Below are positions 8,501 to 59,488 of a stretch of 64,000 nucleotides of DNA, one piece after another. Each line of letters opens with the position of its first letter. Within the stretch, counting starts at the first letter, position 1. The stretch lies in the NCBI GenBank assembly GCA_000004695.1, contig CM000152.2:5280001-5344000 (forward strand). The letters are read 5' to 3'. The notes under the pieces are model-generated. The model was given only the letters and a program-made list of their open reading frames with translations, did not search any database and was not told the origin of the DNA. The position numbers and the translations under genes are program-made. The stretch comes from Dictyostelium discoideum (taxonomy: Eukaryota).

Positions 8501-11500
8501 CATTTTAATATTTCTAATGTTGCTAAACCAATACCACCTGTTGCTGAGTGAATTAAAATTACTTCATCATCATCGATATTAAAATTACCAATGTTGAACA
8601 TACCATGAAGACATGTTGAAAAAATGACTGGTAATGATGCTGCTTCAACATGACTAATATTCTCAGGTTTATGTGAAACATAAAGTACATCAGCTATAAC
8701 ATGTGAAGCGGTTGTGTCACAAGCTATACCAAATACATTATCGCCTACTTTAAATTCACAATTTTGATTCTCATTAGATATTCTTGTGATAATACCTGAA
8801 AATTCGAGACCAAGTGGATTTTTAGATATTGATACATTTTCATCAATAACAACTAAACCACGATAAATTAAATAATCTTTATAATTAATACCTGTTGCTA
8901 AAACTTTGACTTCAATTTGATTCTTTTTTAATTTCTTTGGTTTTGATGCTAATTTGTATTCTAAATTTGTTGAATCTAAGAGTGTCATAAAGTCATTATC
9001 TTCGAACGAATTTGAATTGAAGTTTGATTTTATATTCTTTTCATTCTTTAATATTTCATAATAAATTGAATTATTTCTAATTATATATTCTCTTTGAATA
9101 TGGTTATTTGAATTTTCAATCAATTGATTAATGATTTTATTTAATAATGATGATATTGATAATTGATTATCAAAATCGATTGAATATAGATTTAAACTTG
9201 GAAATTCATTAAAGTATCTTGCTGTACCTATTATTGATGATGATAAATAGTTTTTGATTTGTGAATCAATAGTAATTAATACATGTTTACATGTTAAACT
9301 ATGTTTTAAAAGTTGTTGATTAATTTCAATATATTCCATTGTAATTTGTTTGAAATTATTCATTTCTAATTGTTCCATTGATTTAATAAAGTAAATTATT
9401 GAATCATTTGTTATTGAAGGTAATAATTGATTAAATTCATTAATATTCGATATTATTGTTTGTTTGCAGCTGATATGATTATTTGAAATTAATTTCATAA
9501 ATTCATTTGTATATTTTGATTCTTTTTCACAATAAATTATAATATTATCATTTTTATTGTTTGGAACAACTGTTAATTCATTTGATAATATTGTTGATTT
9601 TTGTGATTGTATTACTTTATTTGACTTTTGAATTTTGTTTTCATTAAAACCTAAATTTATTAAACTATCGATATTGTATTTATCACCAATATCATCTCCA
9701 ATTATTAATAATAATCCATTTGAAGAAAGAATATTAAATATTGATTTGATGATTGTTTCATCATCACCATCATTATTATTATTAATGATAATATCATAGT
9801 ATGATGGTTTTAACTGGGTTATATCATTTTTAAAGATTAAACTTGAATCGTGTAAAGTTGGAAGTTTATCATTTGAATTATCAATAATTGTAAATTCTAT
9901 ATCGATTTCTTGTAAACTATTATCATCGAAAATTTGATTTAATGTTTCAATGATTTGTTTTGATAATTCTAAATCTGAAAATGATTGTAAAATTCTAAAA
10001 ACAATTTTTTCATTTATAATTGGTTTGATTGTTTGTTTAATAATTTCTGTAACTGTATTGCTGCTGCTGATGCTGCTAAAAGTTTGATTATTATCAATGG
10101 ATAAAATATTAACTAATGAATCTTTACATTGTAAATTATTTGTAAATAATTCAGTTGTAGGATTATTAATTAATAAACTATTAAGTAATGGAAGAGTTGA
10201 ATGTAAAGATATACAATCCATTTCTAACAACTTTGTACCATCTTCTAATAAAACTAAAACTGATGATTTATAGCTATCTGATTCCAAGGAGATGAATTTT
10301 GCTTGACAATAGATATTCTTATATTTTAATTTGTCAGTTGGTATATTTTCAGAATAAACTTTTAAACCTTCAAGTCTTTCAAATACAAACTGGCTTGAAT
10401 TTGTAATGAATCCAACTATAGTTTGTGAACAACTATCTAATAAAGCTGTATTGAAAAATGATTTATCGTATGTTTGATAAACTGGCTTACCATCGATATC
10501 AAAGTTTTCAGTGTTTACTTGAATTTTAGATATAATACAATCATTACCAAAATACAACTCTTCAATTCCTTGGAAAGCTCCTAAATGAGTGATTCCAGTT
10601 ATTGATCTGGAATGTTTGTAAACTTCTTGTTTTGAAAGGGTTGTAAAATTACATTCTGATAGCAATTGATTTATATCATATTTAGATGAGTGATCATTAT
10701 TATTATCTTTTAGTGATATAAGTTGAAAGTTACCAGTACATGTTTGAACCCATTGATTTGTTTTATTATCTTTTATGTTGAATGTAACTCTATAATCAGT
10801 GTTACCTAATTGATAAACATTGGTTTGTAAAGTATGTTTGACATTTTCTTTTAAAACAAATGGTGCTAAAAATTCCAAGTTATTAATTATAATATCTTGA
10901 TTTGGGTAAAGTTTCATAATATTATCAGCATATCCAATACCTGGGAAGTAATATTTTCCTTTTACAATATGGTCTTTTAAGTATTTGAATGGATTTCTAT
11001 TTATATCGATTATTGATTCATATGATTTGTTATTTGATGAATAGTTAATCATTGATTTACCTAAACTGTTGAAAACATTTGGTCCATTTAATCTATATTG
11101 TTCAAAGTTAATATCAACTTTCCAATAGTGTTGTTCGTCGAATTGATAGTTTGGTAAACTGATATTGACCTTGCTGTTTCTAATGGAACTGACATCATCA
11201 TCATTGTGATTGAATTGACACTTGAAGTTTACATCATAACCTAAACAATAAATTTGTGAAATTGTTGAATGAATTTCATCTAAATCATTGGAGTTCTTTT
11301 TGTTTGTTGATGTTAATACTGAAACTGAATTAAAGTAACTTGATGATTTTGGTATCATTTGTTTTAAATAAAATGATAAACTTGGATGTGGTGAAACTTC
11401 AATAAATATTAATTCATTACCAAGTTTATTATTTTCAATGTGTTGATATAAATTTGAAATAGTTTGAGAGAATCTGACAGGTTGTATTATATTTTCATAA

Positions 11501-40765: not shown

Positions 40766-41021
40766 TTTTTTAAAGGGTGGTAAGATTTACCAGGGAATTC
40801 TTCAGCAATATTATCAATTAATGATTGAATTTGTCTTTCTGATAATGTTACATCACCCATATATAATGATTCTCTAAATACAACACCTGTTGCTGTTTTT
40901 GGTTTTATTTCATATACACCACTAAAACTCCATTCATGTCCACTAAATCCAATTTCATTACCATTTATTTCAACTGCTGAATGAAATAATCCAACACCCA
41001 AACAATGTCCAAAATTATTTA
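40766..41021 (-). CDS. PPPDE/DeSI peptidase exon 2 (…NNFGHCLGVGLFHSAVEINGNEIGFSGHEWSFSGVYE…)
   Basis: Catalytic-His region (G.G.FHS.VEI.G.E..FG) of the PPPDE domain. Donor AAAAA|GTATAAT; acceptor ctttataaag|TAAATAATTTTGG. Confidence 0.7.
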
Positions 41022-41116
41022 CTTTATAAAGTTATTTTTTTTTATTTTTTTTATTATAATAAATTATTTGATTAGTCTCTATTTAACAGTAATAATAAAT
41101 TAAATAATAAACATAC

Positions 41117-41192
41117 TTGGATGTAAATCATATATATTTAAATAAACCTTTGTAATGTTTGGTCCTCTATTATTTATTGGTTTTAAATTCAT
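41117..41192 (-). CDS. PPPDE/DeSI peptidase exon 1 (MNLKPINNRGPNITKVYLNIYDLHP)
   Basis: The VYLNIYDL start is typical of the PPPDE domain. Donor CCAA|GTATGT. Confidence 0.6.
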
Positions 41193-41302
41193 TTTTTTAT
41201 ATTTCTCTACTTTTTAATTTAAATAAATACATATACATATAAACATTAACAATGTGGTTTTTTGTTTTTATTTTTCTTTTTTTATTTTTTTTTTTTTGGT
41301 GT

Positions 41303-41336
<34 letters not shown>

Positions 41337-41662
41337 GTGTGTAAATTGTCTTTTTTTTTTTTTAAATTATGATGGTTTTTTATTAATATTTGAAAAAGAT
41401 GACGATTAGAAAAAACGACTGTTTGAATATTTTCAAATAATCATAAATATCTTCATTTTTTTTTTTTTTTTACAATTTTTCCATATTTTCATTTTTTAAT
41501 AAAAAAAAATAGAAAATTGTTTGGTTTACAATCAAATTTTTTTATTTTAAAATTGTCTATTTTTTTTTTTTTTTGAATTTGGTAACTTAGAAGTATACTC
41601 AGAATTTAAATTTAATATTTAAAGCAGGTTAATTTTGGTAAATAATGAAAAATTTCAACTAA

Positions 41663-41734
41663 TCCTCATTGGTGTAGTCGGTAACACTCTAGTCTCTCAC
41701 ACTGGTACCCCGGGTTCGATTCCCGGATGGGGAG
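41663..41734 (+). tRNA. tRNA-Glu (anticodon CUC), 72 nt, followed by a T8 Pol III terminator
   Basis: Folds by inspection: acceptor TCCTCAT/ATGGGGA; anticodon stem CTAGT/ACTGG with loop CTCTCAC; T-arm CCCGG-GTTCGATT-CCCGG; discriminator G; then cttttttttt. Confidence 0.85.
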
Positions 41735-41765
41735 CTTTTTTTTATCAAAAAAATTTTAGATTACA

Positions 41766-41776
41766 GGTTCGACTCC
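41766..41776 (+). promoter_or_regulatory. External B box (ex-B, GGTTCGACTCC) 31 bp downstream of tRNA-Glu
   Basis: Exact B-box consensus outside the tRNA, a known feature of many Dictyostelium tRNA genes. Confidence 0.7.
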
Positions 41777-41789
41777 TTCATTAATTATC

Positions 41790-42270
41790 CCAAAGGTTGT
41801 GAGAATTCAAATTAAAAATTAAGGAATATTACTCTACATTAAAGACCCACATATACCCAAAACAGAATTTCAAAAAGATCTATTCTTAAGAGGATATAGC
41901 TACAATCAACTATTCCCAAACATATTGAAGATAAGAAATCCGAACAAATTATTTTAATAATTTTAATATTACAAATATTAGAGAATCTTCATTAACTTTT
42001 AATTCAATTATTAATAATAATACCAATTCAATAATTTTAAATCCATTATGTAATACAAATATGATTAATGATCCATATGGCCATCTATTCTTTGATTGTC
42101 TTAAAACAAAATCATATATTAATGCATCCAAACTTAAAGAATTCATCTTCAAATCAACAGGAGGAAAAAATAATTGGTTACACGAAAGAACTACCAAAAA
42201 CAACAAAACAATAAACAAAATCACACCTATTACCTTCCAACAATAATTAAAAAAAAAAAAAAAAAAAAAA
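41790..42270 (+). mobile_element. Candidate 5'-truncated non-LTR retroelement fragment (TRE3-like?) starting about 55 bp downstream of tRNA-Glu and ending in a 24-nt oligo(A)
   Basis: Non-AT-homopolymer sequence with a short ORF (42061-42246) running into a poly(A) tail at 42247-42270. The position downstream of a tRNA gene matches the TRE3 targeting preference. No RT/EN motif is present in this short fragment. Confidence 0.3.
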
Positions 42271-43506
42271 AATAACAAATCAAAATACAACAATATAACC
42301 AATTGTTACTATTCAAATAATTAAAATAAAATAAAATAAAATAAACATTATTATTGCAGAAGGTCTAACCCTTAGCAATTAATTAATTAATAACTAAAAA
42401 AAAAAAAAAATTCACATCATAATTAAAATTCAAAAATAAAATTGTAAATTATTGTTTATTCCATTTGGATAAACACTGGTTAACCGATTTTTTTTATATA
42501 AAAAAATCATAGTCTGCTCACGAATTTAGGTGACCTAACTTAACCTTGCAAGTTTTTTTTTAATTGCTAATATTTTTAAAATTTACAGTGCAAAAAATAA
42601 TAATACATAAAAATAAAAATTAAAAAAAATGGGAAAAAAAAACAACAATCTTATAATTTTTTTTTTAAATGGACAATATGTAAATCTTTAAAGATTTAAT
42701 CATAATAATTTATTATAATATTAGTTTAAAAATACTTTCTTGATGCCGACCGTTTCTTTATCATTTTATCTAATTAATCAGTATTTCTTTTCAGGCGACT
42801 GATTATTTGATTCTCTACCAGTAGTTCTTTTAAGGAGACTGGAAATTTCTTAATTCTATTCATTTTAGTATCTATCCATGAATTTTTATTTGAACCAATT
42901 TACTTTACCATTATCAATAATTTCCAAACATTTTAGTATCCATTTTTATTACTATTTTTAGTTTTATAACTATTTCCAATCTGTAAAATATATTAATAGC
43001 AACCTTTCTTTATAATATTAAAACAATAATTTCTAAACATTTTAGTATCTATCCATATTTCAACCATATAAACTATTTCCAATTTCATTTTAGTATCTAT
43101 CCATTTATTACCATAATTTCAACTATTTCCAATTTGTAAAAATATTTAATATTACCACACAGTACATTTTAATTTGTTACTTTAACCAAATTCCAACCAT
43201 TTTTTAAACTATTTCCAATTTTTTAAAATTGATTGCTACCAATTAACAAATTATTATAACAACTTGTTTAATAGTAATGGTAATATAACAAGATTTCTTG
43301 AAATTTTAATATCTACCCACAAACATTTAAACCATTTTCTAATACTACTGGCCAAAATATTTAATATCAATCCATAACTATATTTACAAATTATTCAAAA
43401 TATTCTTTGATTTGGTAGTTCATTGACATTATCCCAACAATGATTTATAAGTCCAAAACCAAAAAAATGAGATAGCCCCATAAACGTTACAAGTAACGGA
43501 GAAAAT

Positions 43507-43795
43507 TAGGACTTTGTTCCACAGGACGATTTGAGATTAAAGAAAAACACTTATTTGGATTTGGTTCCACTGGGATGATTTGAGATTAAAGAAAAACATA
43601 AATTTGGATTTGGTTCCACAGGACGATTTGAGGTTAAATAAAAACACTAATTTGGACTTTGTTCCACAGGACGATTTAAGATTAAAGAACAACATTAATT
43701 TGGACTTTGTTCCACAGGACGATTTGAGATTAAAGAAAAACTCTAACATGGACTTTGTTTTACAAGGATGACACGAGATTAAAGAAAAACATTAA
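43507..43795. repeat. Six tandem copies of a ~46-bp unit (ggactttgttccacaggacgatttgagattaaagaaaaaca.taatttg)
   Basis: Direct inspection. The 42740-43330 region also carries 5 dispersed copies of (cat)tttagtatctatccat. Confidence 0.85.
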
Positions 43796-44596
43796 TTTAT
43801 ATAGAACATTCGGGGCAAACAATAGTTTTATTACTTGTGAAACTGAAAAAATAACAAAGAATCTATGGGAATTAATAGTAGCAACCAATTGGTATACCAA
43901 TTAAAAGCAAAGTAAATGGATCATTTGCAAAAAATGGTCTTGGATAACGAAAAAATCAAAAGCATCCAACTTTGAAAATACCTACAACTAATTGGTATAC
44001 CATATTCATTAACATCCAAAGTAAACAAAATCATTTGCAAACGTGGAAATTGAAAAAAAGCAAAAAAAAGAAAAACAACCACCTACGGACAAGGAAAGGT
44101 CAATGAGTAAGACATTGACCACCTGCTTAAAAAATTTGTAGTATCCATAATAATTATTATATGTGTATTTAAAAAAAAAAATATTTAACAACATTACATT
44201 TACCATTAAGCTTTAAAGTTTGGGCGAAACTATTGAAAAACAATTGAGAGATCTTTGAAAACTATGGAAAATTCAATAAAAAAAAATCTTTAACGAAACA
44301 GAAGAATTCTATGAAAACACCTGAATACTTACAAACAGGTTACACTATTGAAATTCAAATAAAGTAAAAAATTAAACTTGAAAAATAGATTGTAACAATG
44401 AATTGAAGATTTCCAAAAAAAAAAAAAATATATTCAAAATAATAAAAAGGGTTAATCCAACACCACTATGTATATACCAAAACTATTATATATTTTTTAT
44501 AATTATTATTATTATTGTTATTATTATTATTAATAATATTATTATTTTAAAAAAATTAAAAATCACTAAAAAAAAAAAAAATATAAAGAGGTTATT

Positions 44597-44634
<38 letters not shown>

Positions 44635-44871
44635 AATTCTTGTTAATAATATTACCTTTAAAAAAAATTATTTATTCTTTATTTCTCTCAATTGTTAAAA
44701 AAAATGAATTAGTTAATATTTATCCACTTGATTTAAATTGGAACCGACATTTTAATATAGTTTATCTTTTTTTTTTTTTTTTTTTTTCTTTTTATATATT
44801 TATTTATTTATTTTTTAAAAATTAATGAACATTTTAGATAACAGTGGATTTTTTTTTTGTTTGTTTGTTTG

Positions 44872-45016
<145 letters not shown>

Positions 45017-45919
45017 TTTAATTTATTATTATTATTATTATTTATTTTATTTTATTTTTATTGAATAGTGAAATGAAAAAATCTATTTATACTTTTTTTT
45101 TTTTTAAAAGAAAATGAAAAATGTCTTTTATTTTTTATTTTTTATTTTATTTTTATTTTTATTTTATTTTTTTTTTTAAAAAAAAAAGGTAATTTTTCTA
45201 TTTTTGGAAAATTTTGTTTTTGGAAGGGGTTTAAAAAAAAACAAAAAATAATTTGGATCTTTTTTAAATAAAAAAAAGGTTTTTATTTTTACTTAATTTA
45301 GGAAAATCGCATATTGACATTCAGGAAGAAAATTTCAAGGCTTTTGGTTTTTTTTTTTTATAAAAAAGGTTTTTTTTTTTTTTATTTTTTTTTTTCAAAG
45401 AAAATTATTTAAGGAAATTTCTATTAAAAGTTAAAATTAATATTTTCATTATTATTATAGATGTTTTAGAATAATGTTTTTTTTTTATAAAAATTAACAG
45501 GGTTTTCAAAAAAAATTAAAAGATACATAAAAAACATTCAAGTTTGAGCATTTTTCGAAATTTAAAAATCTAAATAAATGTTTCAATAACAAAATGTGTA
45601 TGTAATATTGTTTTTGAGTTATTATAGCTTAAACAAATTGATCCACAATTACTCTAATTGATACAGCAGTCGTTGATTATTTGATTTTTAATATTTTAAT
45701 TTGTTTAATGTATTTGATTTTGTTGAAAATTTTTTATTATATTAGGCAGTCCAAGGTTGCATATGTATATCATTTTTTGAGAATATGGTAGTCTATTATT
45801 GTGTCTTGAATTTTGTCATCACTGTAGAGTGATTGTGCAAATATTAATTCTTTTAAAAATGTCTCCTATCAACACAAGAATTGAACATGCGACTATATAT
45901 TTACAAGAATAAAAATATT

Positions 45920-45990
45920 TGCGTATGCCGGGAATCGAACCCGGTTCAACTGCTTGGAAGGCAGCTATCATACCACTAGACCACATACGC
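45920..45990 (-). tRNA. tRNA-Gly (anticodon UCC), 71 nt
   Basis: Minus strand GCGTATGTGGTCTAGTGGTATGATAGCTGCCTTCCAAGCAGTTGAACCGGGTTCGATTCCCGGCATACGCA. Anticodon loop CTTCCAA; acceptor GCGTATG/CATACGC. Confidence 0.85.
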
Positions 45991-46039
45991 TTTGTTGATG
46001 ATAATTTAGGGTAAATGCTCGAATAAATTTTAATTATAA

Positions 46040-46228
46040 TTTGTAATTTTTTAGTTATTTATTTTTATATAGAAGCAAAAATAAAGATTTTGTTCAGCAA
46101 AATTAAAGATTTTGTTCAACAAAATTAATATATTTAACCAGATATTCTAGATCTAGAATAATACCACCACGATCAGCGATGTATATTAGTCAACAATAAT
46201 TAAAAACAAAAAAAAAAAAAAAAACTCC
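46040..46228 (+). mobile_element. Possible short poly(A)-terminated retroelement 3' remnant about 50 bp upstream of tRNA-Gly, with an internal 21-bp direct repeat (aaagattttgttca(g/a)caaaatta) and oligo(A) at 46205-46225
   Basis: Position (about 48 bp 5' of a tRNA gene) and the oligo(A) end distal to the tRNA match the TRE5 targeting geometry. No coding similarity to confirm. Confidence 0.2.
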
Positions 46229-46466
46229 TTGTTATCCAAACAAGGTTTGTAAATAAAATTTTAAAACAATTGGATCAAATTCAAAAAATATATATTTTAA
46301 TTAAATTTTATTAATCAACAAATATATTTATGTGGTATAATATATTACCTTCCACAGTTTCATCTCTACATAATTTTCCTAATTTTTCGCTTGTCTAAAT
46401 AAATAATTATTGAAAATGAATAGAAAGTTAGTTATTAAATATTTATTTTGATTATTAATTTTTCAT

Positions 46467-46896
46467 TTAATTTAAAAACAAACAAAAACAAACAACACCT
46501 ACCAATAATTGATCTTTAGCTAAATGTAAAGAGATTGAATTAATTTTAGCCAAATCAAAAGCAGATAGTGGACCATTTTCATTAATGATATCTAAAATTT
46601 GTTTAGCTATTTGTTCATCATTTTCATCTTTTGATTGAACCACAATAACACCACTATCAAATTTACGTAATCTTAAAGGTAAATCCAATGATTCAAATAA
46701 TAAACATGCCCTATATAAATCATCTGGTGAAATTAATTCTATACCTCTAGCTCTATTAAAAATACAATACAAATCTGATAATGTAATCATTTCATTATTA
46801 CCACTACCTTTATGTTGTTTTAAAATATTCTTTGTAATTATCCAATCTGATAATTGTTTTGATAATTGATCATGATATTTTGATTTTGCTGTTTTT
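46467..46896 (-). CDS. vps36: ESCRT-II subunit Vps36 (EAP45) gene, exon 3 (…KTAKSKYHDQLSKQL…ITLSDLYCIFNRARGIELISPDDLYRACLLFESLDLPLRLRKFDSGVIVVQS…)
   Basis: Collinear with the human VPS36 winged-helix region ([49 protein letters not shown]). Acceptor ttatag|AAAAACAGC. Confidence 0.8.
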
Positions 46897-47037
46897 CTAT
46901 AATTTAAATTTGAAAAATGTTAATAATAAATTTTTAATCATATTCTTATTGTGATTTTTAAAAAAAAAAAGAAATAAAAATAAAAAAATAAAAAAAAGAA
47001 ATAAAAATAAAAAATAATCAAAATTTTTATAAATTTA

Positions 47038-48283
<1,246 letters not shown>

Positions 48284-48354
48284 CTAATTAATTAATTTGT
48301 TAATATTAAAAAAAAAAAAAAACTCTATATTAATATATATATAAATATATTTAC

Positions 48355-48458
48355 CCATCATATATTGAAACATTATCAACTTTATATATTATAGATTCAT
48401 TTTGTATTAATTCTGGTTCTCCATTGATGACCCTTGTTTTTTGAAATAGTGTCTCCAT
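48355..48458 (-). CDS. vps36: Vps36 exon 1 (METLFQKTRVINGEPELIQNESIIYKVDNVSIYDG)
   Basis: ATG at 48458. Donor GATGG|GTAAAT; acceptor aattaattag|TGACCAAAAAACTC at 48283. Confidence 0.7.
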
Positions 48459-48695
48459 TGAAGTTAACTTTTAATGTGTTTTGAAAAGAAAATAAAACAA
48501 ATTAAAAATTTAAAAAAAAAAAAAATTTAAAAAAAAAAAAAAAATTAAAAATTTTAATACCATTTTTTTGACATTGTTCAAATAATTTTTTGGAGATATT
48601 TGTGGCCCAAAGTTAATTTAAAAAGGTAAAAAATCAAAATTTATTTGTGTCCTTTTTTTTTTTTTTTATTTTATTTTTTTTTCTTTTTTTTATTT

Positions 48696-48726
<31 letters not shown>

Positions 48727-48851
48727 GATTTCTTTTTTTAAAAAAACCAACGGGCTTATATAAATACACATAATTAAATTTTTTTTTTTTTATTTTTTTT
48801 ATTTTTTTTTAATATCCTTTCCTCTATAATAATTTAATTGCATATTATAAT

Positions 48852-49790
48852 ATGGAAGAATCAAATAACAATAATTTTTTATTTTCACCAGATTATATTT
48901 GGTCTCAATTACTTGAAAATAATAATAATAATTATAATAATAATTATAATAATATTAATAATAGCATTAATGAAAATTTACTAAATGAATTGAATAGTTT
49001 TCAAAATACAGGAGTATTTGATTTAGATACAAATATAGAACAGCAGCAACAACAACAACCAACTGAAATTCAACAACAACTACAAAACTATCAAGAATTC
49101 CAACAAAAAAAATATCAAGAACGTCAAGAACAATATCAAATTCAATATCAACAATCATATATAGAACCTTTAAATTTTAATGAAACATATAATAATGAAA
49201 CATATTGTAATATAATACCACAACCGCCCCAGGTTGAACAACAACAAGAACAAGAACAAGAACAAGAACAACAACAAAAACAACAACAACAACAATATAT
49301 TGAAAAACAAATACAAGAAATAATAAAAATACCAGAAAAAAGGCAAACACTTAACCAGATTCCTATTGAAATGATGCAACATAATTTCTTTAATACACCA
49401 AAACTTGATCAACAACTACTCTCAAATTATTCAGACTTTTTTAAAACAAATCCAATTTTACCTACAACCACAACAACAACAACAACCACAGCAATAACAA
49501 TAGATCAACAACAACAAAACCATATTGATAATCAGTCATTAAATAATTCAAACACAAAAACATCAAAGAACCAACAAAAAGATAATAATTTACCAAAAAA
49601 AAAGAATTTATCCTATGATATCACAAAAATAACATTTAATAATAATAATATAGAAAAAAAGAGAGACCAAACTGAATCAAGTAAAAATTTTAGAGAAAAA
49701 AAAAAGGAGTATGTAAAAGAAATTGAAAGTAAAATTTTAGCTCTAACCCTTGAAAATGATAAACTTAAAAAAGAAAATGATTCATTAAAA
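48852..49790 (+). CDS. bZIP transcription factor paralog A, exon 1 (N/Q-rich; ends in basic region …[39 protein letters not shown])
   Basis: Basic region plus the start of a heptad Leu zipper. Donor TTAAAA|GTATTT at 49790. Confidence 0.65.
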
Positions 49791-49878
49791 GTATTTTTAT
49801 AAAAATTAATAATTAATAATAATAAGAAAAAAAAAGAAAGATTATTAACAAAAAATACTTTATTTATTATATAATTAG

Positions 49879-50706
49879 ACTATTAATGGATCAAATTTAA
49901 TGAGACCAGAACCAGAATCAATTAATATGATAATGGAATGTAAAAAAATTATAAAAAAACTGGAAAAAGCATTAATTGATAATGATGAAAGATCATTAAT
50001 TTATTTATTATATCATTATCATAGTGAAACATCAAAAAGGTATTCATTAGTAGAAATTGAAGTTGATAAAATTGCAAACCCATATTCACAAATAAAATTA
50101 AAGTTAGCAGGTTATATTCAAAATCCAACAACTTTAGATATTTTTGATGGTAATTTTAATAATAATAATAATAATAATGGTAATAAAGAAGAAGAAGAAG
50201 AAATATCATGGTTTATAAAATATAAAAATGAAGCAAATCTTACAATTGAACAATCAAATAAATTAGATTTATTACGTAATCAACATGGTTTAATTTTTGA
50301 AACCTTATTAAAAGAAAGAAAACAATTGGATAATGAAATTTTAAAAGTTTTTAATGAAATTATAATTGCTAGTTACGATGGTTCAAATGCAAATTTAATT
50401 AGTGATAAAGGATTTGAATTAAAGAGTAAATTGAAATCATTAAAAATGAAAATCATTTCAAGTTTAAATTTAAATTTAGATACATTCTCATCAATTAGTT
50501 CCATTTTATTACCAAAACAAGAAGCATTACTTTTGGTTAGAGCTCATTTATTTGGTTCAAGTAAATTAAATCCTCAAATGGATTTTTTAAATAATGTTTG
50601 GACAAATATAATCTCTTCAAATTCTTCATGTAGTGTTTTCGAAATTTTAAATTCTTTAAAGGAATTTTCCGATTTAGAAAATTTAGAATTAAATAAAAAT
50701 TCATAA
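49879..50706 (+). CDS. bZIP paralog A, exon 2 (…TINGSNLMRPEPESINMIMECKKIIKKLEKALIDNDERSL… C-terminal domain)
   Basis: Frame open from acceptor ataattag|ACTATT (49879) and in phase with exon 1. The track ORF starts at an internal Met. Confidence 0.6.
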   Translation, partial: TINGSNLMRPEPESINMIMECKKIIKKLEKALIDNDERSLIYLLYHYHSETSKRYSLVEIEVDKIANPYSQIKLKLAGYIQNPTTLDIFDGNFNNNNNNNGNKEEEEEISWFIKYKNEANLTIEQSNKLDLLRNQHGLIFETLLKERKQLDNEILKVFNEIIIASYDGSNANLISDKGFELKSKLKSLKMKIISSLNLNLDTFSSISSILLPKQEALLLVRAHLFGSSKLNPQMDFLNNVWTNIISSNSSCSVFEILNSLKEFSDLENLELNKNS

Positions 50707-51008
50707 TTAATAATAATAATAATAAATAATAATAATAATAATAATATAAAATAAATTTTTTTTTTTTATACAAACTCAAAATTAATTAGTAACTCTTTCA
50801 TTGAATAATGAAATTTTAACATAATGATTTGTTGTTTTAACCGAAAAATTGCGTGCAACTTTTTTTTTTTTTTTTTTTTTTTTTAATTTTTTTTTCTTTT
50901 TTTTTTTTTTTTATACACAAAATAAAAAAAAAATGAATCAGTTTATTTTTAGTTATCTATTTTTAAAATATTTAAACTATTCTGTAAATAATTGAATATA
51001 AAAAAAAT

Positions 51009-51421
51009 ATGGAAGAATCCAATAATTTTTTATTATCTCCTGATTCCATTTGGTCTCAACTATTAGAAAATTCATATGCATTAAATGAAATCAATTGTTT
51101 TCAAAGTTTTGGAACAATTGATAATAATAATAATAATTATAGTAATAATAATAAAAATGGTAATGAAGAACTCTCACAACCAACTGAAATTCAACAACAA
51201 TTACAAAATTATCAGGAATTACAACAACAAAAATATCAGGAGCGTCAACAACAATATCAAACTCAATACCAACAACCATATATAGAGCCAATTTTTGAAA
51301 TCGTAGTTACTCAACAAGATCAACAAGAACTAATTCCACAACAACAACAACAAGAACAAGATCAACAAGAAGATCAAGATCAAGAACAAGAACAAGAACT
51401 ACAACAACAACAACAACAACT

Positions 51422-51509
<88 letters not shown>

Positions 51510-51759
51510 AAACAACAAAAACAACAAAAACAACAGCAACAAGAACAACCGTCAATAATTAAAGAACAAGACCAAGAACAAAAGAAAATAATTCAAGAAC
51601 AACTATGTGAAAAATCAATACAAACATTAGAAAATCATTTTTTTAATACAAATACCCCAAAATTAGATCATCAAATACTTTCAAACTATTCTGAATTTTT
51701 CAAAATAAATCAACCAATAACAGATATACCTACAACTCTAAATACGAACTTACAAAGTG

Positions 51760-51842
<83 letters not shown>

Positions 51843-52073
51843 TTATTAAATGAAAAACAAATTGAATCAACATCAAAAATAAAAAGAATTAATTTAGGTT
51901 ATGATATTACAAAAATAACATTTAATAAAATTGAAAAAGGTAAAAGAAATCAAACTGAATCAAGTAAAAATTTTAGAGAAAGAAAAAAAGAATATATTAA
52001 AGATATTGAACTTAAATTAAAAGAATTAACAATTGAAAATGATAAACTTAAAAAAGAAAATGATACATTAAAG
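51009..52073 (+). CDS. bZIP paralog B, exon 1 ([21 protein letters not shown]…; long poly-Gln; …[39 protein letters not shown])
   Basis: Same N-terminal motif MEESNN(F)[14 protein letters not shown] and the same basic region as paralog A. Donor TTAAAG|GTATAT. Confidence 0.65.
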
Positions 52074-52166
52074 GTATATATATATATATATATTTATTTA
52101 TTTTTTAAAAATAAAAAAATATTAATTAACTTTTAATTTATTTTTTTAAAAAAAAAAAAAAAAAAG

Positions 52167-52438
52167 AAAATAGGAATTGAAATAATGAGATCAGAACCAG
52201 AATCAATTAATATGATAATGGAATGTAAAAAAATTATAAAAAAACTTGAAAAAGCATTAATTGATAATGATGAAAGATCATTAATTTATTTATTATATCT
52301 TTATCATAGTGAAACATCAAAAAGATATTCATTAACAGAGATTGAAGTTGATAAAATAATAAATCCATATTCACAATTAAAATTAAAATTAGCAGGTTAT
52401 ATTCAAAATCCAACAACTGAAATTTTAGATATTTTTGG

Positions 52439-52508
<70 letters not shown>

Positions 52509-53054
52509 GATGATAATGAAGAAGAAGAAATATCATGGTTTAAAAAATATAAAAAAGAAGCAAATCTTACAATTGAACAATCAAATAAATTAGATTTATT
52601 ACGTGATTATCATTGTTTAAAATTTGAATTACTTTTAAAAGAAAGAAGAGAACTTGATAGAGATATTAAAAAATTATATAATGGTATTGCATTAAGTGGA
52701 TTTGATTTAACACCAAGATCGTTAGCAAATTGGGATATTGATAAACAAATTGAAACTACAAATAAATTAAATCTATTGAAAATTAAAATCATTTCAAGTT
52801 TAAATTTAAATTTAGATACATTCTCATCAATTAGTTCAATTTTATCACCAAAACAAGAAGCATTACTTTTGGTTAGAGCTCATTTATTTGGTTCAAATAA
52901 AAAAAATCCTCATATTGAAATTTTAAATAATGTTTGGACTGGTTTAATTTCTAAATCTTCTTCTCCAAGTTTTTTTGAAATTGCAAAACTTTTAAAAGAA
53001 ATGTCAGATTCTGCCAATGCTAAAATTATGGAAGATTATTTATATAAAAAATAA
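52167..53054 (+). CDS. bZIP paralog B, exon 2 (…KIGIEIMRSEPESINMIMECKKIIKKLEKALIDNDERSL…)
   Basis: The acceptor aaaaaaag|AAAATAGGA at 52167 gives a phase-0 continuation; the alternative AG at 52172-52173 is out of frame. Almost identical in protein to paralog A exon 2 over the first ~60 aa. Confidence 0.5.
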
Positions 53055-53061
53055 AATTTTT

Positions 53062-53095
<34 letters not shown>

Positions 53096-53540
53096 TTCTT
53101 TGTATTGTTTTAAAAAAAAAAATAATAATAAAAATTGGTGGTAGCCATATCAGACATCCTTATACAAAAAAAAAAAAATGGTTTAGATATTAATTAATGA
53201 AACTTGGGTCTTAAGCAATAATAGTTTAAGTTTTTTTATTTTTTTTATTTTACCTCAAGGTAAAATACACCTTTTGATTTGTGAATTATTGGGTATTATT
53301 TCTGGGTTTTTAGAGTGATTTTTGGTTTGGACTCTTTTGAGTGGTTTGATTGGTGTTTGGTATTTTTAGGTTGATGTGGGGTTAACTATAGCTAAGAGGA
53401 CCCTCTCCACCACCTTACAAATCTCTTTTAATCCGAAAATAACCAAAATTATAAAAAAATAAAATTAGTTTTGATTAATGCTTTATAGAATTCATATAAT
53501 ATTAATTGTGTTTCATTTTTTAATTATCAATTATTCAACA

Positions 53541-53551
53541 GGAATCGAACC
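53541..53551 (-). promoter_or_regulatory. ex-B box (GGTTCGATTCC on minus) 30 bp downstream of tRNA-Ser copy 1
   Basis: Exact B-box consensus outside the tRNA. Confidence 0.65.
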
Positions 53552-53580
53552 TCTGATCTAATTTAGTTCTGTAAAAAGAT

Positions 53581-53661
53581 CGACACCTGCAGGGTTCGAA
53601 CCTGCGCCTCCGAAGAGAACGCCTTAGCAGGGCGCCGCATTAACCACTTTGCTAAGGTGTC
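53581..53661 (-). tRNA. tRNA-Ser (anticodon GCU), copy 1, 81 nt with long variable arm
   Basis: Minus strand GACACCTTAGCAAAGTGGTTAATGCGGCGCCCTGCTAAGGCGTTCTCTTCGGAGGCGCAGGTTCGAACCCTGCAGGTGTCG. Anticodon loop CTGCTAA; acceptor GACACCT/AGGTGTC; T-arm GCAGG-TTCGAAC-CCTGC. Confidence 0.85.
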
Positions 53662-54599
53662 ATCACAAAAGTTTTGTTTGACTCACTTTATTAAAATGTC
53701 ATCTCAAACTATTTGGGGTGATACACTTTGCTTAGGTGTCACCGTGACAACAACATCAAACTCAACCTTCAATTCAAACAAATTATCCAGAACAACAACA
53801 ACCAAAATTAACACAATTAACATCAATTGAGATCTCTGCAAACTTGATTTTAGTAAATTTCTCTAAAATTTTATTTTTTTTACTTTTTTTTTCCTAGAAA
53901 TTAATTTTCAAATTTTTTTTTTTTACCTTGGAGGTTACCAAGATTTATTTTTTGTAACCTTCCAGTTTTTTTGAGTTTTTTTGAGTTTTTTTTATTTTTT
54001 ATTTTTTTTTTTTCTTAGTGTGTGTTGTTATAAAACAAATGTGTTCATATTTGTTTTAATTTTCCTCTCTTTTTTTTTTTAGTGTTTATTTATTTTTATT
54101 TTGTGTTCATTCTAACCAAGTCAAATATAAAAAGAAAAGAAAAAAAAAAAAAAGAAAGAAATAGAAAAAAAGAAAAGAAAAGAAAAGAAAAGAAAGAAAT
54201 AGAAAAAAAGAATAAAAATAATAATAAAAAAACTTTACAAATCATGTGAAAATAATAATAATAGTAATAAATCTGCTTTTATAAATTTTTTTTATTAAAT
54301 TTAAATAAAAAAAACAAATTAAGAATATATTTTTTTTGTTTTATTTTTAATTTTGAAATTTCATTTGATTTTTTCTCAAATAAAAGTAAATTATTTTTAT
54401 TTAAAATTAATTATTTGTTATCGAATAAAAAAAAAATTTAATTCAAAATAAATGAAAGTGACAATTCAAATTTATTATTTTTAAATTTAGTTTATTTTTA
54501 AAATTTACTTTTATAAACATTAAAAAGACTTGTTTTCAATTCAATGTAAAAATTTTCAATAAAAAAAACATTCATAATAAATTTTAGATATTGTCGATA

Positions 54600-54790
54600 A
54601 CATCAACTTATTATTTAAAAATAATCATGTTAAAAATTTTAATGTCTATTAAATATTTATTTTATTGATGACCTCACTACTTTCAAAATTTAATGCAGTA
54701 AATGGAGATCGAAGTAATAAACAAACAATCTATAAAAAATCTTGTTCAGGTTTGTTAATCTTGTTAATTCGTATTTTAATTTAAAATAAT
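54600..54790. repeat. ~180-bp segment duplicated at 59075-59250 (about 85% identity), part of a segmental duplication that carries tRNA-Ser copies 2 and 3 and their ex-B boxes
   Basis: Aligned by eye: …atcatgttaaaaatt(tt)aat(g/a)tctattaaatatttattttattgatgacctca…ggagatcgaagt…aatcttgttcag(g/a)tttgtt(a/t)atcttgttaattcg…. Confidence 0.7.
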
Positions 54791-54846
54791 ATATTTGATT
54801 AATTATTTTTATTATTTAATACTTCCCTCAGAACATTTATCTACAT

Positions 54847-54885
<39 letters not shown>

Positions 54886-55121
54886 TGGATTAACAAGATT
54901 GATATATGTCCATCTGTGTTAATACGAGTTTTATTTAATATTTATTTAAAGGCTTATCATTTAAGCTGAAGGGTTATTTTAATCATATGAATTGATCAAA
55001 AGATATAATATTTGGGAGAGATGATTCTGGTCTACATAATGGTGATGTTTTTGTATTATTTATTTATTTTTTTACAACAGGAGTCGAACCTGTTATTATG
55101 TTTTGAATTTTGGAAAAATTT

Positions 55122-55202
55122 CGACACCTGCAGGGTTCGAACCTGCGCCTCCGAAGAGAACGCCTTAGCAGGGCGCCGCATTAACCACTTTGCTAAGGTG
55201 TC
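55122..55202 (-). tRNA. tRNA-Ser (GCU), copy 2, identical to copy 1
   Basis: Identical 81-nt sequence. ex-B box GGTTCGACTCC (minus) at 55080-55090. Confidence 0.85.
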
Positions 55203-55249
55203 ATCGAAAATAAAATGGGAGATACACTTTCCTAAGGTGTCATTGAATC

Positions 55250-55527
55250 AAAAAATAATCAGATCGAAAAAAACAAACAACAACAACAATCTCTTTTTTT
55301 GATTATTTCATTTTTCATATAAAAAAGACTTAAAAAACAAATAAATAAATAAATAAACTATTTTAAAAAGCCATCTTTTTACTTTATTGTAATTTATTAT
55401 TTGTTTCGTTTTGAGAATTTTGCGTAGCAAAATTTTCAAAAAAAAAGCAAAAAATAATCAGATCGAAAAAAACAAACAACAACAACAATCTCTTTTTTTG
55501 ATTATTTCATTTTTCATATAAAAAAGA

Positions 55528-55575
<48 letters not shown>
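55250..55575 (+). mobile_element. Poly(A)-terminated element fragment beginning about 48 bp upstream of tRNA-Ser copy 2. Contains an 80-bp internal direct duplication (55253-55333 and 55448-55528) and ends in A46
   Basis: Position 48 bp 5' of the tRNA with oligo(A) distal is the TRE5 insertion geometry. Exact 80-bp duplicate visible. Likely a 5'-truncated TRE5 3' end or 3'-UTR module. Confidence 0.35.
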
Positions 55576-55578
<3 letters not shown>

Positions 55579-57280
55579 GGAACCAAGTTAATTAGAAAAT
55601 TTCCAGATTTTTAACTTTTTAAAGAAAAATAAAAAAGATAGAAAGAAAATAAAATGAAAATCCCAAACAACACCCCAAATATTAAGCAACACAAATGCCT
55701 ACAAAAAATAAGCGAAATTGTGGATAAAACTCAATTAAAAAAAAAACAATTCAAATACGTCATAAACATCAATCACGAACCAGACGATAAAATAAAAAAA
55801 GATTTAGAAAAAAGTTTGGACAAAAAAGATGTTTTAATCAAAAGTAATAATACATTCAAAATTCTCACAGACAGTATTAGTACAGTAATCTATTTTGTAA
55901 ATATGTTTGATGCAGAATTAAAAGGACAATTTATAACCACTATAAGACCAAAAAATATGTATACAGATTTTGATTGGTATAAATCACTCACAGAAATAGA
56001 ATGGGTAATAGAAAATGAAGGATGTAAACTAATTAAATCAGAAATTAAAGGCGAAACTCTAATTATCAAAACAGTGAAAAGAGTCGTAGAAGAATTTGAC
56101 ACTATCATTGAACTAGACAATCTAACATTAATTGGACACTCCAACAAAGGATGGAGAGATCAAACCTCATTACCAGAAAATCAAGAAGAAAACAAAAATA
56201 AAAAACAATCAGATGAACAACAACCACAATCTACATCAGAACAAATACCAAAACAAGGAAAAAGAACAATCATTATCCCACCAATCACATCCTCATCTAA
56301 TGATAAAACATTTATGGCCCTAGATGATACAGCTCAAAAGGTAATAGAAGCATCACTAGAAAACGTAGATGAACTAACAAGAATAGAGAATGAGATCAAT
56401 ACACAATCGATAAACAATCAAGAAATTAAAACAAAATCAGAAAAACCTATCGAACCACCATCTCCATACAATACACCAATAAAACAACACGGCGAAACAA
56501 AGGGACTAACAACGGAAGAAAAACTTAGAGAGGCAAATGATATCTTCGACTTCACCAGCCCAAACACTGATGCAATAAGAAAAATAGAATTCCCACTTTC
56601 AATCCCTTCAAATCAATGGTTCTTCTCCTCTCCAATAAAACATATCATGAGTTTCAGCCCAACCTATGGGCACCATCGAAAATTATCGATTCACCAAGTA
56701 AATTGTTAAACACACCAAAAAAGAAACAACAAGACAAAACAAACAAGACCAACAAAACACCAGTCAAACCAAAATTGGGTGAATATGGACAAAAAAGCAT
56801 AAAAACAAAAATGGATGAAGATATAGACAACTTCAACAAGGAAATTCTAAAACAAATCAATAAATCAAAAAACCCCACAAACACACAAGACCAACAACAC
56901 AACGAACAAAGTAAAGATCAGTTAGAAGACAAAATAAACCAGAAACTTCAAAAGGTAGATAAAAATCTACCCCAAATAAAACTATAAAGAAAAACACAAT
57001 AAGAATAGGTGTTTGGAACGTCCAAGGATCCAACACCATCCAATCTGCCAGCATAATAAACACCGTTTTAGACAACAACAAGCTGGACGCAGCACTTCTA
57101 ACTGAAACAAATATAAAAACAAATAAAATTTACTCAATAAATCAACAATATAAAAACAAAATAACACACCACGCACCAATTGATAAAACAGGACAAGGGG
57201 TGTCACAAATCATCATCAACACCCGCAATAGAACTTCCTAAACATCTCAAAAAATACAATAATTCACTCAGTACTTTTTA

Positions 57281-57340
<60 letters not shown>
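55576..57340 (+). mobile_element. TRE5-type (DRE-like) non-LTR retrotransposon copy, degenerate and internally deleted: 5' leader, ORF1 (55654-56709, continuing in a shifted frame to 56987), first ~80 codons of ORF2 (AP-endonuclease N-terminus …IRIGVWNVQGSNTIQSASIINTVLDNNKLDAALLTETN…), then truncated with oligo(A) at 57290-57340
   Basis: The ORF2 start matches the APE/L1-endonuclease N-terminal pattern (W-N-[VI]-x-G…D[IV]xxLQET). It is tRNA-proximal on the 5' side of a tRNA, and a second partial copy follows. The specific TRE5 subfamily cannot be assigned from memory. Confidence 0.55.
55654..56709 (+). CDS. Retrotransposon ORF1 (351 aa as read; frameshifted near 56630-56700, original ORF probably to ~56987)
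   Basis: The first 63 codons (MKIPNNTPNIKQHKCLQKISEIVDKTQLKKKQFKYVININHEPDDKIKKDLEKSLDKKDVLIK) recur, 61/63 identical, in the second element copy at 57383-57571. Confidence 0.5.
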   Translation: MKIPNNTPNIKQHKCLQKISEIVDKTQLKKKQFKYVININHEPDDKIKKDLEKSLDKKDVLIKSNNTFKILTDSISTVIYFVNMFDAELKGQFITTIRPKNMYTDFDWYKSLTEIEWVIENEGCKLIKSEIKGETLIIKTVKRVVEEFDTIIELDNLTLIGHSNKGWRDQTSLPENQEENKNKKQSDEQQPQSTSEQIPKQGKRTIIIPPITSSSNDKTFMALDDTAQKVIEASLENVDELTRIENEINTQSINNQEIKTKSEKPIEPPSPYNTPIKQHGETKGLTTEEKLREANDIFDFTSPNTDAIRKIEFPLSIPSNQWFFSSPIKHIMSFSPTYGHHRKLSIHQVNC

Positions 57341-57341
<1 letters not shown>

Positions 57342-57660
57342 CAAGTTAATCAGAAAAATAAAAAAGATAGAAAGAAAATAAAATGAAAATCACAAACAAC
57401 ACCACAAATATTAAGCAACACAAATGCCTACAAAAAATAAGCGAAATTGTGGATAAAACTCAATTAAAAAAAAAACAATTCAAATACGTCATAAACATCA
57501 ATCACGAACCAGACGATAAAATAAAAAAAGATTTAGAAAAAAGTTTGGACAAAAAAGATGTTTTAATCAAAAAGACCCTGTAAAAAAAAAAAAAAAATAA
57601 AATGAGATCTAGCATCTCAAGGAGAAGCAAATAATAATTGCGTTATCCAATTCAAAAAAA
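57341..57660 (+). mobile_element. Second TRE5-type copy reduced to its 5' leader, the first 63 codons of ORF1 (57383-57571), and an ~85-bp 3' terminal segment (ccctgtaaaa…gagatctagcatctcaaggagaagcaaataataattgcgttatccaattc + oligoA)
   Basis: The leader (cccaagttaatcagaaaaataaaaaagatagaaagaaaataaaatg) is homologous to 55590-55656. The same 3' terminal segment recurs alone at 59489-59580. Confidence 0.5.
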
Positions 57661-57666
57661 AAAAAA

Positions 57667-57950
57667 GGTGTCATTGAATAAAATGGGATGATACACTTTG
57701 CTAAGATGTCATCGAAAACCAAATGGGTAATACACTTTGCTAAGCTGTCATCGAAAACCAAATGGGTAATACACTTTGTTAAGGTGTCATCGAAAACCAA
57801 CGGGTGATACACTTTGCTAATCTGTCATCGAAAAATATTTGGGTGGTAAACTTTGCTAAGGTGTCCACACAAAATATTTGGGTGATACACTTTGCTAAGG
57901 TTTCGTCGAAAAATATTTGGGTGATACACTTCGCTAAGGTGTCATTGAAA
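57667..57950. repeat. Tandem array of about 7 units of a 42-bp repeat (gtgtcatcgaaaaccaaatgggtgatacactttgctaaggt). Each unit contains the first ~17 nt of tRNA-Ser(GCU), including its A-box, plus ~25 nt of its 5' leader
   Basis: cactttgctaaggtgtc is the plus-strand image of the tRNA 5' end GACACCTTAGCAAAGTG. Shorter versions sit directly upstream of each tRNA-Ser copy (53662-53760, 55203-55250, 59447-59488 and 59579-59660). Confidence 0.8.
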
Positions 57951-59365
57951 AATAAACCACCACAAGACTAATTTTTTGATAAATAATTTTTTTTTTATAG
58001 TTTTTATTGTTTTTTTTATTTTTTTTAAGAAAATGTGGCTGAATAATAATTTTTGAAACTATATTAAAATAAAAAATAATTAAAAAAAATACAAAAAATA
58101 AAAATAATCAGTAAAGTGATTTATATTTTTAATTTATAAAAAAATATAAAAAAAATGAATATACATTCTGCAAACTCGATTTGACTCCATTTGGTTTCTA
58201 ATTGTCTTAAAAATTATTTTTTTTATTTTTCCTTTTTTTTTTTCTTAATTTTTTAAAAAATAACAATAAATCTTACCCTATCAAAATTGTTATTTTTTTT
58301 TCTATTTTAGGATTTATTACATATTTAATTAATATAATTACTTTATTACTATTGTATTTTACAGTTGTAGTTTTTTTTATATAAGATGGCTCGAGATGAG
58401 TAACTGGACTGTCTAATTTTAGGAATTTAAAAAAAAAAATAAAAACTATTCAGAGAACCCAATTTCATTTTTAATTTTTTTTTTTTTTTTAGGGAGTTTA
58501 ATTCAAGAACAATTATAAACCATTTTAACTAATAATAATATAAGTTTTTTTTTTTTTTTATAATATTTTATAATATAAGTTGTTTTTTTTATTTTATTTT
58601 ATTTTTTTAATTATAATTAAATTTGTTTTTGAAATGCAGTTTTATTTAAAAATTCTAAGGTTTTTTCAATAAACTTTATTGAAAAATTTAGGGGAGTTAT
58701 ATGGCCATATATTTTCCTTAATGTCATGGTGCATAGATAAATCTTTCCTTTCTCTGACTTTAGATTAATATTGATTATTTTTATTTCCCTTTGGATATGA
58801 TAGTATTGATATGAACATTGATGTTTTAATAATACACATTTTTCAGCATTTCTATTGTAAAACAACACTTCTATTTAATTTAATGTCACATTTCATCAAC
58901 ACCAATATTTAACTTAAATTTTTTTTTTTTTTTTTTTTTTTTTGATTTTTTTTTTTTTTATAATTTTATTTTAATTTTTTTATATAAAAAGATATAATTT
59001 TTTTTTTTCATTTTATTATTAATTTAAAAAGGTAAAAAAAAAAAAAAAACATTTAGTAAAAACTTTACTTAAATAATCATGTTAAAAATTAATATCTATT
59101 AAATATTTATTTTATTGATGACCTCATTAAATTCAAATTTTAATACAGTCAACGGAGATCGAAGTGCCTGTATCTTAAATTGTGCTCATTAACAAACAAT
59201 TTATATAAAATCTTGTTCAGATTTGTTTATCTTGTTAATTCGTTTTTTATTTTTGTTACTAACATACTATTGATCTACAAATAGTAATAGTAAGCATTTT
59301 ATTTTTTCCAACAGGAATCGAACCTGTTATTCAGCTTTGAATGTTGGGAAATTTTTGCAAAATTT

Positions 59366-59446
59366 CGACACCTGCAGGGTTCGAACCTGCGCCTCCGAAG
59401 AGAACGCCTTAGCAGGGCGCCGCATTAACCACTTTGCTAAGGTGTC
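59366..59446 (-). tRNA. tRNA-Ser (GCU), copy 3, identical to copies 1 and 2
   Basis: Identical 81-nt sequence. ex-B box (GGTTCGATTCC, minus) at 59314-59324. Confidence 0.85.
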
Positions 59447-59488
59447 ATCCAAAACCAAATGGGAAATACACTTTGATAAGGTGTCATC

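Follow-up and report, generated by a model that had tools for sequence, protein, structure and literature searches.

Two tandem bZIP genes on the + strand

We analysed a 64,000-nucleotide stretch of Dictyostelium discoideum contig CM000152.2 (hereafter the window, ~22% G+C; coordinates are positions within it unless another assembly is named) and focused on two neighbouring genes for basic leucine zipper (bZIP) transcription factors. Four open reading frames (ORFs) on the + strand, at 48852-49802, 49900-50706, 51009-52136 and 52185-53054, were assigned to two same-strand paralogs of two exons each: gene A (48852-50706, +) and gene B (51009-53054, +), with spliced products of 588 and 650 residues, respectively. 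The two proteins align from end to end (BLASTP, 614 bits, E = 0), with 370 identities over 666 positions (56%) and long insertions and deletions in the parts rich in glutamine and asparagine (Q/N-rich). An earlier sequence-only reading of this DNA had proposed tandem, same-strand paralogs of a two-exon bZIP gene, and this alignment bears the proposal out. At the nucleotide level, blastn delimits two colinear units of ~2.2 kb (~48685-50674 and ~50860-53010) that are 75-83% identical and take in ~150 bp of T-rich sequence upstream of the genes; across the parts coding for the bZIP and the C-terminal region, identity is 82.5%.

Exon 1 of gene A (48852-49790) encodes an N-terminal motif (48852-48920), a region rich in Gln, Asn and Thr, and a bZIP core detected with Pfam (residues 270-313; 49659-49790) that comprises a basic region and four heptads (I-L-L-L). 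It is followed by an 88-nt, phase-0 GT..AG intron of 92% A+T (49791-49878) and by exon 2 (49879-50706, including the stop codon), within which the envelope of a family hidden Markov model places a TGA/DOG1-like helical domain at 49891-50670. Gene B follows the same order: exon 1 (51009-52073) encodes the N-terminal motif (51009-51071), poly-Gln and poly-Asn tracts and the Pfam-detected bZIP core (residues 312-355; 51942-52073), and is separated by a 93-nt, phase-0 GT..AG intron of 97% A+T (52074-52166) from exon 2 (52167-53054, including the stop codon), whose domain envelope at 52176-53012 is broken by a poly-Asn loop at 52443-52499. Both introns were placed by direct reading and with the help of orthologs.

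The low-complexity tracts of the two genes have diverged as the earlier reading described, with the large poly-Gln expansion in gene B: this gene carries Gln runs of 6 and 29 residues (51399-51509), 27 Asn (51762-51842) and, within exon 2, the 19 Asn of the loop at 52443-52499, versus only Q6, T9 and N7 in gene A. The motifs listed as common to the pair are indeed present in both, with the correction that gene A reads FSPD, not LSPD. The shared sequence at the start of exon 2 is likewise real; the Met quoted as its beginning, however, lies seven codons (TINGSNL, gene A) or six codons (KIGIEI, gene B) inside the exon, and the intron coordinates proposed earlier already include these additional codons.

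By exact look-up, all 588 residues of the spliced gene A product agree with EAL66445.1, XP_640434.1 and UniRef100_Q54T17, entered as 'Probable basic-leucine zipper transcription factor M' (DDB_G0282047, bzpM, D. discoideum AX4). Gene A and bzpM are thus fully the same. Another D. discoideum assembly, GCA_054883475.1, contains a contig 99.7% identical to window positions 40843-58739 and calls genes of 588 and 650 residues at exactly the spans of genes A and B; the 2046 bp of gene B are the same DNA in both assemblies, and a product of 650 residues therefore implies the same 93-nt intron. Forbes et al. 2019 (PMC6873476) name DDB_G0282049 as bzpK in their supplements, next to DDB_G0282047, bzpM, and give both as bZIPs confined to D. 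discoideum. Gene B, the adjacent same-strand paralog of bzpM, is very probably bzpK, whose locus tag is consecutive with that of bzpM. An assignment of gene B to bzpL was rejected, as those supplements give bzpL as DDB_G0284023. Comparison with the Dictyostelium bzp family, which had been suggested together with the original proposal, thus yields one exact and one very probable identification. The two-gene, two-exon finding is correct and is already in public annotation, so that its novelty as stated is nil; re-deriving an existing annotation from raw sequence validates the reading and adds no new biology in that part.

A conserved intron directly behind the zipper

In both genes a GT (49791 and 52074) directly follows the Lys codon of the ...END(S/T)LK motif, and the interval closes with an AG whose last base is 49878 or 52166, respectively; each junction is in phase 0 and in frame with the downstream ORF. 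For gene B, 52166 is the only workable acceptor; an alternative AG at 52173 was rejected on direct reading, as it shifts the frame into a TAA. For comparison, both genes were rebuilt in two more diverged discoideum-like assemblies, GCA_054859355.1 (locus L002, ~88% nucleotide identity) and GCA_054859205.1 (locus L004). All six gene copies from the three lineages carry a GT after the Lys codon and exactly one in-frame AG, in intervals of 88, 111 and 121 nt for bzpM and of 93, 90 and 79 nt for bzpK (92-97% A+T). These lengths differ mostly by amounts that are not multiples of three, with the flanking coding frame kept; the stretch from the AG to the first ATG of exon 2 is likewise free of stop codons and conserved from lineage to lineage (TINGSNL/TINGTNL and KIGIEI/KTGIEI). 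Beyond these lineages, D. citrinum encodes both halves of its homolog in one ORF with no intron, and a Pfam bZIP lies upstream of the domain in the same polypeptide in 58 of 99 family representatives. Annotation and comparative evidence together support two-exon models for both genes, and the proposal of one intron at an identical position after the Lys is upheld by the direct reading and by the six-copy comparison.

The sequence-only reading had also predicted that ORF-style annotation would split such a gene, and this has happened: in GCA_054859205.1 ('Dictyostelium cf. discoideum') the bzpK ortholog, L004:6848-8837, is deposited as two genes, 6848-7909 (353 residues) and 8001-8837 (278 residues; P0008). 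Neither the splice sites (GT at 7904, AG at 7982) nor the reading frame is disrupted, a single two-exon product of 636 residues is possible, and this split looks like an annotation error. The two-exon model is therefore worth propagating, given that a recent public annotation divides the gene.

Selection, possible sequence exchange and expression

Both genes lie in tandem in all three discoideum-like lineages, and on this arrangement the duplication is read as predating the three. PMC6873476 reports that orthologs of bzpK and bzpM are missing from the four other dictyostelid genomes it covers (D. purpureum, D. lacteum, P. pallidum and D. fasciculatum). Judged by codon comparison, both copies are now under purifying selection, because the ratio of nonsynonymous to synonymous substitution rates (dN/dS) between orthologs is 0.13-0.43 over both copies (264 ungapped exon-2 codons) and 0.23-0.43 for bzpK orthologs alone.

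Synonymous divergence between the paralogs is uneven along their length. Paralog dS falls from 0.6-1.5 (blocks of exon 1, variable linker and tail) to 0.09-0.19 in three conserved helical blocks of exon 2; codons for the same amino acid differ at 25% of sites in exon 1 versus 8% in those conserved blocks (Fisher p = 1e-4). The simplest reading of this pattern suggests patchy gene conversion between the tandem copies. When 49879-50670 is set against 52167-53012, paralog dS is 3- to 10-fold lower in the conserved helical blocks.

Published expression classes (PMC6873476, Table 2 and supplement 4) give bzpM a mid-development peak with prespore specificity, and bzpK an apparent late upregulation with no cell-type preference, the latter being a tentative reading of a tab-delimited row. 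Because these classes differ between the copies, they suggest that bzpK and bzpM subfunctionalised after duplication. In the bzpK ortholog of GCA_054859355.1, we observed that the reading frame changes inside a long poly-Asn (AAT/A-rich) tract (L002:11048-11196), which the annotators bridged to obtain 606 residues; either a genuine frameshift or a misassembled repeat could explain this.

A bZIP with an unusual basic region

Searched at full length, gene A gives a marginal Pfam bZIP match and gene B none, a loss of signal caused by low-complexity bias; trimmed fragments pass. The fragment of gene B scores 34.0 bits against bZIP_1 (PF00170; E = 3.1e-8, cut-off 27.6) and 31.4 bits against bZIP_2 (PF07716; cut-off 22.3), and that of gene A 29.6 and 31.2 bits, so that once the tracts are trimmed both genes exceed both gathering scores, as the proposal of bZIP genes had anticipated. 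Against a profile of the family, the best solved structures are CREB bZIPs (E = 1.2e-4).

By direct reading, the zipper of both genes consists of four heptads (d positions I-L-L-L) that continue the basic helix and end at the exon boundary. Two successive 'a' positions (29 and 36) are Asn, with E/K g-e pairs, and the same pattern recurs in K, M and bzpL-type relatives. Under the usual pairing rules of bZIPs, a shared pattern of this kind would allow both homo- and heterodimers, and the K, M and bzpL-type proteins may accordingly be able to combine with one another.

The basic region departs from the bZIP signature NxxSAxxSR, N-x7-R/K (PMC4736632). In the HMMER alignment to CREB (Q-TESSKNF-R vs N-REAAREC-R), Gln occupies the position of the invariant Asn, the Arg at +8 is kept, and an Asn or Asp stands one residue before the Gln. 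Since Gln sits at the usual invariant Asn position, DNA-binding specificity may differ from that of classical bZIPs. Gln at this position, in the basic regions encoded at 49668-49694 and 51951-51977, is found in nearly the whole bZIP subfamily that bears the C-terminal domain, with a family consensus of (N/S)QN(L/I)ASRNYRQRKKxY; a few members (P0123, P0067) retain Asn and are one residue longer here, as would be seen if the others had fixed a one-residue deletion. This family-wide substitution is a testable oddity for rules of DNA recognition.

A C-terminal domain resembling that of plant TGA factors

Exon 2 encodes an all-helical domain of ~250 residues in both genes, for which a Pfam search returned no match in A or B at E values up to 10. 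We modelled the domains with AlphaFold2 using no templates and searched the models against solved structures. The gene B model (51 sequences) has a mean predicted local distance difference test (pLDDT) score of 79.8 and a predicted template modelling score of 0.73, and the core helices of the gene A model (8 sequences) reach pLDDT 80-92. Among 350,542 chains, the top five Foldseek matches are C-terminal domains of Arabidopsis TGA3 and TGA7 (probability 1.00; template modelling score 0.52-0.62, target-normalised). The TGA domains lead all other folds by 5-6 Z units, and in two independent models 176-196 of 206-215 residues can be superposed at 2.7-3.6 Å. The training structures of AlphaFold2 end in 2018; the TGA structures were released in 2022.

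Profile searches point the same way. A profile that spans bZIP and domain finds TGA3 with colinear matches to the two parts (E = 0.018). Searching 1.84 billion representatives exhaustively gave 132 significant clusters, and a 44-sequence profile of the domain alone, built from these clusters and run against the PDB, matches TGA3 at 1.1e-4 and 2e-4 and TGA7 at 3.6e-4, that is, all three TGA sequences in the PDB, over ~120 colinear residues that include LTxxQ, ILTxxQxA and a closing LxxLW. The domain order is also that of TGA factors, the bZIP being immediately N-terminal, and the models place a bZIP and a TGA C-terminal (NPR1-interacting/DOG1-type) fold in one polypeptide. Taken together, the exon-2 domain quite likely has a TGA/DOG1-type fold and is probably a remote homolog. 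A literature search found no paper tying DOG1 or TGA domains to Dictyostelium, and a pan-eukaryote bZIP survey (PMC4736632) is silent on such a link; in the sources searched, neither the TGA/DOG1-like domain nor the Gln-type basic region seems to have been described before.

Named members of the resulting family are all dictyostelids (D. discoideum, D. citrinum, Polysphondylium violaceum, Cavenderia and Acytostelium), the remainder being metagenome or transcriptome contigs. The conclusion taken from a neighbour-joining tree is limited to bzpK and bzpM being a long-branched pair. Among dictyostelid-like (N/Q/S-rich) sequences from the exhaustive search (P0010-P0048), at least three or four separate groups combine a bZIP with a TGA-like domain. 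Further bzp genes of this type, beyond bzpK, bzpL and bzpM, probably exist in D. discoideum.

Neighbouring features

The divergent upstream neighbour of gene A is vps36 on the - strand (47035-48249, with further exons to ~48480), recognised by Pfam EAP30 (E = 2.7e-11) and Vps36_ESCRT-II. It is unrelated to bzpK and bzpM, and its very long poly-Gln CAA repeats cross-match the poly-Gln of gene B in blastn. Three tRNA-Ser(GCT) genes lie on the - strand at 53580-53662, 55121-55203 and 59365-59447, the first 526 bp downstream of the gene B stop, and tRNA-Glu(CTC) and tRNA-Gly(TCC) genes lie at 41663-41735 (+) and 45920-45990 (-). A repeat of ~220 bp is present at ~55.6 kb and at 57352-57572 (97.8-100% identity in a comparison of locus L001 with the window).

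Discussion

We conclude, with a probability of roughly 85%, that this locus holds two tandem paralogous genes, bzpM and very probably bzpK, that encode three-part transcription factors and arose by duplication of a ~2.2-kb unit. In the proposed scheme, the N-terminal Q/N-rich low-complexity region, with its few conserved short motifs, would probably serve in activation or interaction; the bZIP at the end of exon 1, with its four-heptad zipper and Asn at two successive 'a' positions, would mediate dimerisation and DNA binding; and the ~250-residue helical domain encoded after the phase-0 intron, directly behind the zipper, would adopt the fold of the plant TGA C-terminal (NPR1-interacting/DOG1-type) domain. 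By analogy with TGA3, this last part is probably a regulatory module, acting in oligomerisation, cofactor docking or the binding of a hydrophobic ligand.

One competing account of the locus would count four genes instead of two, with the second ORFs (49900-50706 and 52185-53054) independent and equipped with their own promoter and start, and with the bZIP ORFs ending inside the A+T-rich interval. Each second ORF does open with an ATG, and the gene B ortholog appears in GCA_054859205.1 as two entries of 353 and 278 residues; in that very assembly, however, the GT..AG pair and the frame are intact. The behaviour of the intervals across six copies argues further against it, for at 79-121 nt they leave no room for both a terminator and a promoter, they vary in length without keeping the frame, and the codons from AG to ATG stay open and conserved. 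Because, in addition, bZIP and domain form one polypeptide in 58 of 99 relatives, including the intronless D. citrinum gene, four genes are very unlikely, and the AX4 deposit for bzpM is itself the fused 588-residue product. A somewhat less remote, still quite improbable, account grants the two genes and regards bzpK as a duplicate that lacks a separate function and is on its way to becoming a pseudogene. It would accommodate the dN/dS of ~0.9 (at dS ~0.2) between paralogs in exon 2, the much larger Q/N expansions of gene B, the frame change in the poly-Asn tract of the L002 ortholog, which annotators bridged with an extra gap, and the lack of orthologs in four other dictyostelid genomes (PMC6873476). 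Yet the ORF and splice sites of bzpK are intact in the window, in L001 and in L004, its orthologs evolve at the dN/dS of 0.23-0.43 expected of purifying selection, and the L002 frame change sits in an AAT/A-rich repeat of a kind in which assembly errors are common. The gene also appears to be transcribed, because PMC6873476 assigns it an expression class.

For the C-terminal domain, the alternative that deserves most weight, albeit clearly the less probable one, is that its resemblance to TGA factors reflects convergence of long helical bundles and that the domain arose within dictyostelids or protists, unrelated to TGA. Only 13-14% of residues are identical to those of the TGAs; Pfam DOG1 (PF14144) matches neither A nor B at E values up to 10, nor does it appear among the families of the 99 relatives; the gene A model, built from 8 sequences, has a mean pLDDT of 66.6; a shallow 7-sequence profile of the domain alone finds TGA3 at E = 0.27, below noise from histone H2B and protein A; and in the 44-sequence profile search two de novo designed helical proteins outrank the TGA chains. 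These observations weigh against our interpretation, as do several that concern the genes themselves: the paralog dN/dS of ~0.9 indicates relaxed or divergent selection at some stage; the exact look-up found no deposited protein identical to the 650-residue product of gene B or to its exon ORFs, and the match of gene B to the dictyBase model of bzpK draws on adjacency and one other assembly; splicing is argued from annotation and comparison; and DNA binding is assumed, because Gln replaces the canonical Asn of the basic region. Against convergence stand the gap of 5-6 Z units to other folds in two independently built models, the shared order with the bZIP directly N-terminal, and the matches of three PDB TGA sequences at 1e-4 to 4e-4 over ~120 residues, versus a single helix for each designed protein, including a third designed bundle that ranks among the TGA chains. 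We favour two genes with a TGA-like third part.

Comparison with known systems

Of the solved bZIPs, those of CREB/ATF type (PDB 1dh3, 5zko) score best against the family profile, the RKKKEYVKxLE junction being nearly identical; CREB differs in having the canonical Asn and in carrying KID/Q domains in place of a TGA-like domain. The exon-2 domain also shows a partial match to bacterial LTXXQ proteins of the CpxP/Spy/ZraP type (PF07813), which are much shorter and periplasmic. PF07813 matches neither A nor B and occurs among the exhaustive-search matches in only 7 distant ones at the tail, with Spy at E = 0.015-0.03 against the family profile, and this resemblance is a curiosity, not a family assignment.

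The nearest relatives are dictyostelid bZIPs that we classify as bzpL-type (for example, D. citrinum P0003, Cavenderia fasciculata P0004, Polysphondylium violaceum P0009). They combine a bZIP with an exon-2-type domain and share the basic region (N/S)Q-x2-(A/S)S-x2-(Y/F)R-x-(R/K)KK-x-Y, an ENDxLKKEN zipper and the motifs ERSLIYLL, NPYxQxKL and ILTPKQEA. They differ in that the D. citrinum gene has no intron, and the basic-region residues have changed in bzpK and bzpM (QTESSKNFR vs QNLASRNYR). The bzpL type is conserved across Dictyostelia, whereas bzpK and bzpM are limited to the discoideum group (PMC6873476).

The most far-reaching comparison is with plant TGA factors, the group D bZIPs, represented here by Arabidopsis TGA3 (PDB 7tae, 7tac, 7tad) and TGA7 (PDB 8gyz). 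A review (PMC9360754) describes TGAs as a plant-specific bZIP subgroup, in which the TGA3 domain dimerises, binds NPR1 and encloses palmitate, and records NPR1 or ROXY as bound cofactors, and heme in DOG1 and an enclosed fatty acid in TGA3 as ligands, known from plants; Gutsche et al. (PMC6508501) did not find TGAs in chlorophytes and placed their origin in a streptophyte ancestor. The Dictyostelium proteins differ in their amoebozoan host, in their 13-14% identity with no Pfam DOG1 match, and in the Gln that replaces the canonical basic-region Asn. Since the host is amoebozoan and nothing resembling a plant TGA appears among the 132 significant clusters, membership in the streptophyte TGA clade is unlikely, and our claim is limited to a TGA-like architecture and fold. 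That the bzpK, bzpM and bzpL-type proteins, together with at least 58 representative clusters of microbial-eukaryote proteins, are amoebozoan and protist counterparts of plant TGA factors is a tentative idea, plausible rather than probable. If they are homologous, the bZIP-TGA/DOG1 architecture did not originate in the streptophyte ancestor and would be much older, or would have moved between lineages. The domain may also be a switch that binds a ligand (lipid or heme) or docks a cofactor and so influences the expression of prespore and late developmental genes. Confirmation of an amoebozoan family would provide a haploid, easily knocked-out non-plant organism in which to study the TGA/DOG1 domain, a domain that carries bound palmitate in TGA3 and heme in DOG1.

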